Virus record (IMG/VR): IMGVR_UViG_2693429518_000023
Strand: one strand, 5' to 3'
From: a virus
Taxonomy: Duplodnaviria; Heunggongvirae; Uroviricota; Caudoviricetes
DNA length: 10,738 nucleotides
Part shown: positions 3,178 through 3,787 of the stretch, piece after piece
How the letters are laid out: each line of letters starts with the position of its first letter
Numbering within the stretch: position 1 is the stretch's first letter
Program-made: the position numbers and the translations under genes
Notes under the pieces: generated by a model
Database searches by the model: none
Told to the model about the DNA's origin: nothing
Seen by the model: only the letters and a program-made list of their open reading frames with translations

Positions 3178-3269
3178 GTCGGCTCCTTGTGGTTAGCGTT
3201 GCCTGCTTTTAACCACGTCAGGCGAGGTGGTATCCTCTGAGGGGTCTGTTACTCGAGAGGAAATTGGTT

Positions 3270-3470
3270 ATGAATACAATCAAGTTTTCTTGCCCAGAAT
3301 GTGGTGGCGAAGTCTTTGACACATCCTTTAAGCCGCAGGGCTCTGACAGTTTCGCGGGAGCCATCTGCAAAAATTGTGGTCACCTTGTAACTGAAGATGA
3401 GTCCTCGCAGTTCGATGACGAAATCGTTGACAATATCTTCGGTGCACTCACCAGAGACTTTCTGAAGTAA
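3270..3470 (+). CDS. Small zinc-ribbon protein, 66 aa (CPECGG...CKNCGH)
   Basis: Two CxxC pairs about 22 residues apart. GAGAGGAAA upstream of ATG 3270. Convergent with the leftward operon and fully overlapped by antisense ORF 3249..3605; I favour the plus-strand gene because of the RBS and zinc-ribbon motif. Confidence 0.5.
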   Translation: MNTIKFSCPECGGEVFDTSFKPQGSDSFAGAICKNCGHLVTEDESSQFDDEIVDNIFGALTRDFLK

Positions 3471-3517
3471 AGGCGCATACCGCTTAGTTACCGCTCTGAT
3501 AACTCTTACCTGTCCTG

Positions 3518-3550
3518 CAATGGCGCTGATGTCAATATAAAGCGCCATTG
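3518..3550. repeat. Perfect 10-bp inverted repeat (CAATGGCGCT / AGCGCCATTG) with 13-nt loop; possible terminator or protein-binding site
   Basis: Read directly from the sequence, 48 nt downstream of the zinc-ribbon stop. Followed on the plus strand by moderately U-rich GCUGCUUCUUUG. Confidence 0.4.
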
Positions 3551-3787
3551 CTGCTTCTTTGCCGATCCCGGGATGCCTTCCATTCTGATGTTTGACTTCG
3601 CCCACTGAGAAACCCTCTGTTTCCCCTTAACGCCGGGGTAGCGGAACAAAAACCTGCTGCATAGTTATTAAAGTTGAACCCTGCCGTCATGTTCATACGC
3701 CTCGGGCTGGCTACTTAACCCCTGACCACTGCCGGGTAACTCGAAGTATTTCCCTGCGTTCTGTGGGGCGGGGTGGGTTGGTATTTT

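Follow-up and report, generated by a model that had tools for sequence, protein, structure and literature searches.

A zinc-ribbon gene nested antisense in an operon-sense reading frame of Qin-type prophages, with both strands probably coding

When a stretch of phage DNA is open on both strands, which strand codes, and could it be both? The question is raised by a locus in the 10,738-nucleotide sequence of the IMG/VR virus record IMGVR_UViG_2693429518_000023 (the whole stretch is called the window here). The window is from a Qin/DicF-type lambdoid prophage of Escherichia coli O157/O55, of which it forms the immunity and early-left region. A plus-strand open reading frame (ORF) for a zinc-ribbon protein lies there inside a longer minus-strand ORF, which we call ORF-A. 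A preliminary description of the window had recognized the plus ORF at 3270-3470 by its Shine-Dalgarno (SD) sequence and four-cysteine zinc ribbon, and had noted that the minus ORF 3249-3605 overlaps it. Both observations hold (SD GAGAGGA, motifs CPEC and CKNC; 118 amino acids from a GTG start). The same description implied that the minus ORF is a decoy, and here we disagree: the selection on its N-terminal codons (p = 7e-7), the SD and start codon found in every lineage, the open frame in deep lineages and its survival alongside a nonsense allele of the zinc-ribbon ORF (E14*) all speak for a second coding frame. On the strength of such sequence comparisons we think it reasonably probable that both strands code, the zinc-ribbon gene being an autonomous, reverse-oriented cassette nested in a translated ORF of the operon. 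The features at the center of this reading are:

3270..3470, plus strand: zinc-ribbon gene, ATG at 3270, TAA at 3468-3470, 66 amino acids, WP_001092153.1, ECs_2282 family
3255..3261, plus strand: SD sequence GAGAGGA of the zinc-ribbon gene, with a spacing of 8 nt to the ATG
3249..3605, minus strand: ORF-A, 118 amino acids from GTG 3605 or 99 amino acids from ATG 3548; PHROG 21318
3613-3618, minus strand: SD sequence AGAGGG for GTG 3605
3471..3542, minus strand: part of ORF-A outside the zinc-ribbon gene, 24 codons analysed, with the motif TL-x-(I/V)-D-x-S...Q...P

ORF-A holds the entire zinc-ribbon gene with the codons of the two frames in exact register (position 1 faces position 3), and its end lies shortly before the start codon of the zinc-ribbon gene. 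Is this arrangement kept in relatives of the window? Searches with the plus protein recovered relatives of 60-84% identity in Citrobacter, Klebsiella and Enterobacter, and searches with the minus protein recovered relatives of 58-97% identity. A profile search of representative proteins with ORF-A included a relative of about 45% identity (P0040), and tblastn against phage genomes gave relatives of 29-34% in Klebsiella and Enterobacter phages. The locus DNA was compared among 18 distinct diverged sequences plus three loci labelled L114, L115 and L116. In all compared sequences neither ORF is interrupted and the geometry is the same, except for the nonsense alleles E14* and E44* of the zinc-ribbon ORF and the indel copies L015 and L016. 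Across the homologues the minus ORF starts 26-37 codons past the zinc-ribbon stop and ends within a few codons of the zinc-ribbon start, and the zinc-ribbon gene runs against the surrounding early operon in every case. The module lies on the PL side in the window, L008-L014, L022-L030, L032 and L114, and directly after cro on the PR side in L006, L007 and L031; in every one of these contexts ORF-A is co-directional with the early operon. A scan of genome contigs with the plus-protein alignment returned only two spurious short zinc-ribbon matches (one Bacteroidota and one archaeal metagenome-assembled genome); sampling of one genome per species misses the prophage module. The ORFs of 66 amino acids near some homologues (L008 3062-3262, L006 6353-6553) are unrelated and are not paralogues.

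For the plus strand, the comparisons give us high confidence that the zinc-ribbon ORF is a real coding gene under purifying selection. Its product carries the cysteine pairs CPEC (C8, C11) and CKNC (C33, C36) in the spacing CxxC-x21-CxxC, the further motifs GSDSFAG and CGHxVTEDESSQFD, and then an acidic C-terminal tail. The four cysteines together with G30 and G37 are invariant in seven deep lineages, down to 28% identity, and the length of the ORF stays at 63-76 codons across the homologues. Equivalent SD sequences (AAGGAGG or AAGGAAG) precede the start in most homologues, L114 being without a clear one. A parsimony tree of 17 sequences shows that substitutions affecting the plus protein without touching the minus one occurred at only 0.25-0.40 of the neutral (silent reference) rate (p = 2e-9), and the four-fold degenerate sites of the minus frame that lie opposite conserved plus residues (Cys, Gly and His codons) do not vary. 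Across 87 E. coli loci, 16 plus-silent, minus-altering changes compare with 6 that are minus-silent and plus-altering. Substitutions creating a plus stop were expected about 4-9 times on trees of the diverged sequences, and one was seen.

The family of the zinc-ribbon protein is already catalogued as NF047912, “ECs_2282 family putative zinc-binding protein”. The ORF reaches 57.3 bits against the NCBIfam cutoff of 37 (E = 1e-15, profile positions 1-56 of 60), and the type member of the family, NP_310309.2 of E. coli O157:H7 Sakai, has the same CxxC...CxxC layout. NF047912 is a naming model only, and it does not record that members lie inside a conserved antisense ORF. The window protein is identical to WP_001092153.1, which PGAP annotates in many O157 genomes; PGAP uses the ATG, while the program-made ORF list starts this frame at an upstream TTG (3264). 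Against generic Pfam zinc-ribbon families (Zn_Ribbon_TF, Zn_ribbon_3, HVO_2753_ZBP, DUF5795) all matches stayed below the gathering threshold, the best being DUF5795 with 23.4 bits against a cutoff of 27. A relation to Lar-like restriction alleviation proteins (PHROG 6422) was considered and dropped, with E = 0.0098 only and no single stretch passing; the Lar family is also absent among the Pfam matches at E ≤ 0.1. A profile search of the PDB with the zinc-ribbon protein gave nothing below E = 0.18, and PDB sequence searches with this protein and with ORF-A gave no significant match. Our sole guess about its role is that the protein might bind a host or phage macromolecule through its zinc ribbon and acidic helix.

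Is ORF-A, then, a gene as well? The 24 codons in 3471-3542 can be read without interference from the zinc-ribbon frame. Here the minimum numbers of substitutions at minus codon positions 1, 2 and 3 are 21, 17 and 38, so that most fall at position 3, and the nonsynonymous/synonymous ratio of the minus frame (0.23) is the lowest among the six frames, of which that of ORF-A is the only one without stops. On the tree, nonsynonymous changes in this part occurred at 0.19-0.59 of the synonymous rate (p = 7e-7), and transversions at 0.19 of it. The motif TL-x-(I/V)-D-x-S is retained in L115 and L114. In every lineage ORF-A has a start codon with an SD sequence of GGAG/GAGG type 5-10 nt upstream.

Within the overlap the signal is smaller. 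Plus-silent sites had 0.44-0.70 times the reference rate (p = 0.003 on the tree, depending on the reference class). Sites at which a change is nonsynonymous in both frames had 0.14-0.18 times that rate, roughly what multiplying the two single-frame ratios gives. Among the four-fold sites of the plus frame, P9 CCA and G37 GGT are invariant, and V40 GTA and T41 ACT are each changed in one sequence. On a tree of sequences found without reference to ORF-A, about 5 substitutions creating a minus stop were expected if only the plus frame codes, and none was seen (P = 0.007). When the plus protein was held fixed and synonymous codons were redrawn from the usage of the window (TTA/CTA 26% of Leu codons, TCA 22% of Ser codons), the antisense frame was open in 3-19% of trials per lineage; it is actually open in all lineages. 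This test rests on at least four effectively independent deep lineages, whose homologues were recovered without reference to ORF-A, and L114 and L115, found by tblastn with the plus protein, also have ORF-A open. TCA occurs in the zinc-ribbon gene at codon 2 only, exactly where ORF-A ends. As judged from these substitution patterns, selection falls chiefly on the zinc-ribbon protein. ORF-A shows constraint at its N-terminus, only weak constraint in the overlap and strong avoidance of stop codons; it is probably coding and not just a shadow. Conservation of the minus ORF alone, an outcome that the preliminary description had envisaged, is not what we find: both ORFs are conserved, the plus one more strongly.

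The family of ORF-A is likewise already catalogued, as PHROG 21318. Residues 20-118 match the full length of this profile (1-99 of 99, E = 3.9e-67), and the homologues from L006, L008 and L013 match it too. The 99-residue profile was built from automatic gene calls, with no mention of the zinc-ribbon family on the opposite strand. A profile search with ORF-A of 1.84 billion representative proteins returned only 8 clusters; since all of them belong to its own family, ORF-A has no independent distant family as an anchor. Its AlphaFold model is moderately confident (alpha-alpha-beta-beta-alpha, mean pLDDT 73.8, from a shallow alignment), and a structure comparison of the AlphaFold models gave no informative structural neighbours. 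In the Citrobacter freundii prophages L008-L011 (3995-4519, minus strand), ORF-A is fused in frame to an upstream segment of 80 amino acids that matches PHROG 23433, giving an ORF of 174 amino acids; the usual internal SD and ATG are retained.

Nature provides alleles in which one frame is closed. The substitution G3309T turns codon 14 of the zinc-ribbon ORF into TAA (E14*) and changes ORF-A merely from F to L. Of 5426 complete E. coli genomes, 516 carry E14* (at 520 places, compared with 863 places that are intact; about 37% of E. coli copies), and ORF-A is intact in all 516. The allele occurs in O157:H7, O111:H8 and O103 strains as well as in PPompW phages. In several O157:H7 genomes one prophage has an intact copy and another a nonsense copy. 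The second, independent nonsense allele, E44* (G3399T), is silent in ORF-A and was found at one locus. Among the 87 E. coli loci there is no nonsense allele of ORF-A. These alleles imply that the zinc-ribbon protein is dispensable for prophage persistence, and that ORF-A persists in its absence. E14* arose in one mutational event and has limited weight as evidence. Separately, in L016 (NZ_CP028432.1, 1510-1811) both frames are broken by single-base insertions at two sites 9 nt apart (following window positions 3380 and 3389), and PGAP labels the minus ORF there a frameshifted pseudogene.

The cassette reading also concerns the DNA on either side of the zinc-ribbon gene, where the following elements are found:

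3517..3551, plus strand: stem-loop, arms 3517-3527/3541-3551, 11 bp, 100% complementary, 13-nt loop, 47 nt after the zinc-ribbon stop
3209..3236, plus strand: inferred promoter-like site of the zinc-ribbon gene, TTAACC-16-TGgTATCCT (extended -10)
3201..3231: interleaved inverted repeats, GCCTG 3201-3205/CAGGC 3219-3223 and ACCAC 3212-3216/GTGGT 3227-3231
3816->3789, minus strand: PL/dicBp-like sigma-70 site, TTGACT-16-TAAACT, in AT-rich palindromes

The stem-loop is the perfect 10-bp inverted repeat that had been reported at 3518-3550; it is present, and with 11 bp (3517-3527/3541-3551) slightly larger than described. Its folding energy is -21.0 kcal/mol on the plus strand (z = -4.0 against shuffles) and -19.9 kcal/mol on the minus strand (z = -3.1). 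A hairpin of different sequence occupies the same place in L032 and L114 and is more stable on the zinc-ribbon strand. In an alignment of 12 sequences 77.6% of the cells pair, six pairs show double changes, and the covariation score is 0.237 compared with 0.165 in shuffles (0 of 500). One central pair (alignment columns 14/36) is G-U in 7 of the 12 sequences, which is a C-A mismatch on the minus strand. Because of this covariation and the pairing that only the plus strand allows, the hairpin is probably the 3′ stem-loop of the zinc-ribbon mRNA, acting as its terminator or stabiliser. A pyrimidine- or T-rich tract follows the stem (T8 in L024, T5 in L008 and L012), and its bases double as the spacer between SD and start codon of ORF-A on the other strand. 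On the minus strand the hairpin DNA encodes N-terminal residues of ORF-A. In the E. coli group ATG 3548 lies within one hairpin arm, which favors the upstream GTG 3605 as the start of ORF-A there. Rfam, searched over 3100-3900 at gathering thresholds and at E ≤ 1, has no family for the hairpin or for the upstream element; the sole match in this range is a chance microRNA match on the palindrome 3836-3882.

On the other side of the gene, GGTGGTATCYT and a block upstream of it have been kept in the loci of E. coli, Citrobacter, Klebsiella and Enterobacter as well as in Klebsiella phages whose protein has 29% identity. The interleaved repeats, which these phages retain too, overlap the promoter-like site and are fused to its TATCCT -10-like hexamer, and L032 has the compensating pairs GCCGGG/CCCGGC and CCACG/CGTGG at the same position. 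The repeats may be an operator for a regulator encoded by the module or the host, or an RNA pseudoknot in the leftward transcript. The block 3201-3236 is better conserved than the coding sequence. Two other candidates in this area were rejected: a sigma-70 scan match at 3253-3280 on the plus strand, which overlaps the start codon and was dismissed as the zinc-ribbon promoter, and a hairpin in the 5′ untranslated region before the zinc-ribbon SD (TCTTGGT/ACCAAGA in other lineages), which is unstable in the window (-3.6 kcal/mol, z = +1.1). The PL/dicBp-like site on the minus strand is presumed to be the start of the leftward transcript that would read ORF-A, ydfC and DicF. It is overlapped by nested AT-rich palindromes at 3784-3828, and an imperfect 22-nt inverted repeat (3836-3857/3861-3882) lies directly after the ParE stop. 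The palindromes in 3784-3882 could be operators or the terminator of the transcript of the repressor and toxin-antitoxin genes.

How firmly can two coding strands be maintained? Several points weigh against them. Long shadow ORFs arise most readily in antisense frames that are in register. At plus position 1, the frequency of transversions does not depend on whether they change ORF-A (0.200 vs 0.196), and within E. coli the plus-silent polymorphism per site in the overlap is not below the synonymous rate of the part outside it. In the deep lineages ORF-A has an identity of 15-24%, compared with 28-29% for the zinc-ribbon protein. The “neutral” reference of the rate tests consists of few sites, largely of the 24 non-overlap codons, which possibly have a different history; with sites silent in both frames inside the overlap as the reference, the difference is not significant (p about 0.1). 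On the side of the plus cassette, the AlphaFold model of the zinc-ribbon protein is poor (pLDDT 58.6, shallow alignment), the promoter-like site has 8 of 12 matches, which is below the scan threshold, and is not reported by the scan, and in the window the stem is followed by TGCTGCTTCTTTGCC, a weak T-tract for which the scan called no terminator. Moreover, a ribosome-profiling preprint lists the locus in a BLAST table only: for the EDL933 copy, Table S12 has an embedded antisense ORF matching NP_310309.2 (ECs_2282), which is not analysed further (bioRxiv 10.1101/2020.11.18.388249). The accessible part of a Cappable-seq supplement has no transcription start site entry near the EDL933 copy, an uninformative absence.

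Could ORF-A be translated without its protein having a function? Ribosomes on it would then form a translational bridge that covers the operon mRNA across the antisense cassette of about 400 nt, with the benefit that ydfC, DicF and dicB are spared Rho-dependent polarity, or that the zinc-ribbon transcript is kept from annealing to the mRNA. A bridge of this kind would put stops under strong counterselection, preserve an SD and start codon and constrain the amino acids of the overlap only weakly, which is the pattern seen, and it suits an ORF that always runs in the operon sense and always ends just at the zinc-ribbon start. However, it leaves the constraint on the N-terminal amino acids, seen in the suppressed transversions (0.19 of synonymous) and in the TL-x-(I/V)-D-x-S motif kept in L115 and L114, without a cause, and it would not predict an AlphaFold model of moderate confidence. 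We regard this explanation as unlikely.

A second possibility is that only the zinc-ribbon gene codes and that the minus ORF is its shadow, the leftward RNA being an untranslated leader or an antisense RNA. Openness would follow from composition, as the in-register antisense strand of a gene poor in TTA, CTA and TCA codons lacks stops. Such a shadow agrees with the better conservation of the plus frame in every pair and in the deep lineages, with the frequency of plus-silent changes, including charge-reversing E-to-K changes of ORF-A within E. coli, with the indifference of plus position-1 transversions to ORF-A, and with the choice of the NCBI curators, who modelled the plus protein only. On the other hand, a shadow should show no purifying selection in codons outside the zinc-ribbon gene and no SD and start conserved in all lineages; it should be open in 3-19% of cases per lineage and not in every intact homologue, and it should have acquired some of the about 5 expected stop substitutions. 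Moreover, the only TCA of the plus gene is at codon 2, where ORF-A may end. We therefore judge a shadow ORF improbable. A third possibility, in which coding is confined to the minus ORF and the zinc-ribbon ORF lies antisense to it by chance, is highly improbable: the minus ORF is longer, operon-oriented, preferred by RAST and Prodigal and better modelled by AlphaFold, and plus nonsense alleles are common in E. coli, but chance would not hold four cysteines invariant to 28% identity at four-fold degenerate sites of the minus frame, suppress minus-silent changes to 0.25-0.40 of neutral (p = 2e-9), conserve the length, SD and start of the zinc-ribbon ORF in most lineages, place a plus-strand-specific hairpin downstream and a conserved promoter-like block upstream, or leave one plus-stop substitution where about 4-9 are expected.

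If both strands do code, how would the two genes share the locus? The plus cassette would consist of the promoter-like site at 3209-3236, the SD, a 66-codon gene for a C4 zinc-ribbon protein with an acidic tail, and the stem-loop at 3517-3551, which would end or stabilise the zinc-ribbon mRNA. On the minus strand, ORF-A would be translated from 3605 or 3548 to 3249, through the hairpin region and the entire zinc-ribbon gene. With PL (or PR) repressed in the lysogen, only the zinc-ribbon transcript would be made, and its product would be a lysogen-expressed accessory protein; after induction, the cassette would be met head-on by PL transcription and ORF-A translation and be shut down through collision or antisense pairing. 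From this we derive, tentatively and with considerable doubt, a life-cycle toggle: the two proteins would have been locked together before the prophages of Escherichia, Klebsiella and Enterobacter diverged, with the zinc-ribbon protein made in the lysogen only and ORF-A made only after PL/PR derepression, its transcription and translation shutting the zinc-ribbon gene off; the head-on nesting would then be what does the regulating. In the Enterobacter hormaechei prophage L013 a superinfection-exclusion gene of the SieB family (3323-3823, plus strand) stands just upstream of the zinc-ribbon gene on the same strand, which hints that the cassette may sit among lysogen-expressed, PL-antisense genes.

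The surroundings of the locus in the window are as follows:

2959-3177, minus strand: ydfC
2565-2616, minus strand: DicF small RNA (Rfam RF00039, 76.7 bits), downstream of ydfC
4393-4827, minus strand: DicA-like repressor gene
3901-4426, minus strand: RelB/ParE toxin-antitoxin pair
1101-2549, minus strand: exonuclease gene
minus strand of the window: xis and int
rightward from 4843: Cro-like, YdaT-like and replication genes

ORF-A comes first among the ORFs of the dicB-type leftward operon under DicA control. The zinc-ribbon gene had been described as convergent with leftward genes, and indeed ydfC, DicF, the exonuclease gene, xis, int, the repressor gene and RelB/ParE are all on the minus strand; with this layout, mutual interference with PL-type transcription would be geometrically unavoidable. 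Positions 2900-3950 are 100% identical to many E. coli O157:H7 and O55:H7 chromosomes. The leader 3622-3784 is common to the window and Qin-type phages (matches H40-H48), and the Qin-type phages H40-H43 were recovered without the segment 3178-3621. In the dicB operon of the Qin prophage on the K-12 map, ydfA-ydfB lie between the dicBp-type leader and ydfC-DicF; this module has the same position as 3178-3621 and no sequence similarity to it. Because the leader is shared with Qin-type phages that carry ydfA-ydfB there, the segment from about 3200 to 3621 is an exchangeable module at the head of a dicB-type leftward operon.

Some further features of the neighbourhood deserve mention. The RelB/ParE pair separates the DicA-like repressor gene from the PL-like promoter and apparently has the orientation of the repressor. 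The exonuclease gene of the window (1101-2549) is a truncated version of a gene for 823 amino acids, as in O55:H7 DEC5E, and the dicB and DUF1482 genes, which come next after DicF in L001, are missing. The late part of the window holds a hok/sok-type toxin-antitoxin locus, with a match to sok antisense RNA at 9411-9586 on the plus strand (113.5 bits) that overlaps a Hok-like ORF of 70 amino acids at 9524-9736 on the same strand.

What do existing annotations make of the pair? The preliminary description expected gene callers to prefer the longer ORF. RAST does so in phage Evi and Prodigal-type metagenome calls do likewise, while PGAP calls either strand, giving in some genomes (L017, L019) the minus ORF of 99 amino acids from ATG 3548. 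The DNA of L018 (NZ_CP021879.1) and L019 (NZ_CP140466.1) is identical over 1510-1809, and PGAP reports a zinc-binding protein on the plus strand in the former and a hypothetical protein of 99 amino acids on the minus strand in the latter. Since PGAP, RAST and Prodigal pick different strands, pangenome and prophage comparisons split one locus into NF047912 and PHROG 21318. Literature searches for ECs2282, the WP accessions, the PHROG and NCBIfam identifiers and peptide strings found nothing in main texts, and in the literature searched it appears to be unreported that NF047912 and PHROG 21318 are two strands of one deeply conserved locus.

Well-supported antisense overlapping genes of bacteria and phages are few and contested, and most are young ORFs inside old genes. 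As the present pair is conserved to below 30% identity and the embedded gene is the more constrained one, it would be among the oldest and cleanest cases of antisense overlap. It would also be a good benchmark for overlap-aware selection tests and for gene callers. The locus is also easy to approach experimentally in E. coli O157 prophages, where the natural G3309T disables the zinc-ribbon ORF alone and the silent change C3326A would do the reverse. If the partition between lysogenic and lytic expression is true, it would represent a new layout for embedding lysogen-expressed genes in the early operons of temperate phages.

Which known systems does the pair resemble? In lambda and P22, sieB is a reverse-oriented, lysogen-expressed accessory gene in the PL region, and it is not known to be nested in an operon-sense ORF. 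The zinc-ribbon gene is similarly small and oriented against PL, with the immunity region on one side and the early-left genes on the other. Antisense overlapping pairs have been described in enterohaemorrhagic E. coli (EHEC) and Pseudomonas, for example nog1/citC, laoB, asa, ano/ECs2385, pop/ompA and the oloz genes (PMC9927249, PMC5960689, PMC6294744, PMC8850804, bioRxiv 10.1101/2020.11.18.388249), and the published pairs are mostly taxonomically young embedded ORFs in well-conserved “mother” genes (PMC9927249). As in these pairs, the two ORFs studied here lie on opposite strands and overlap extensively, one is fully embedded in the other, and annotation pipelines keep only one of them. In contrast to them, the embedded zinc-ribbon gene is the more constrained partner and has its own promoter-like site and hairpin; the pair moreover co-occurs down to less than 30% identity across Escherichia, Citrobacter, Klebsiella and Enterobacter prophages. 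The zinc-ribbon gene and ORF-A probably join the few antisense overlapping gene pairs already known, among which they would be unusual in their age and in the dominance of the embedded gene.

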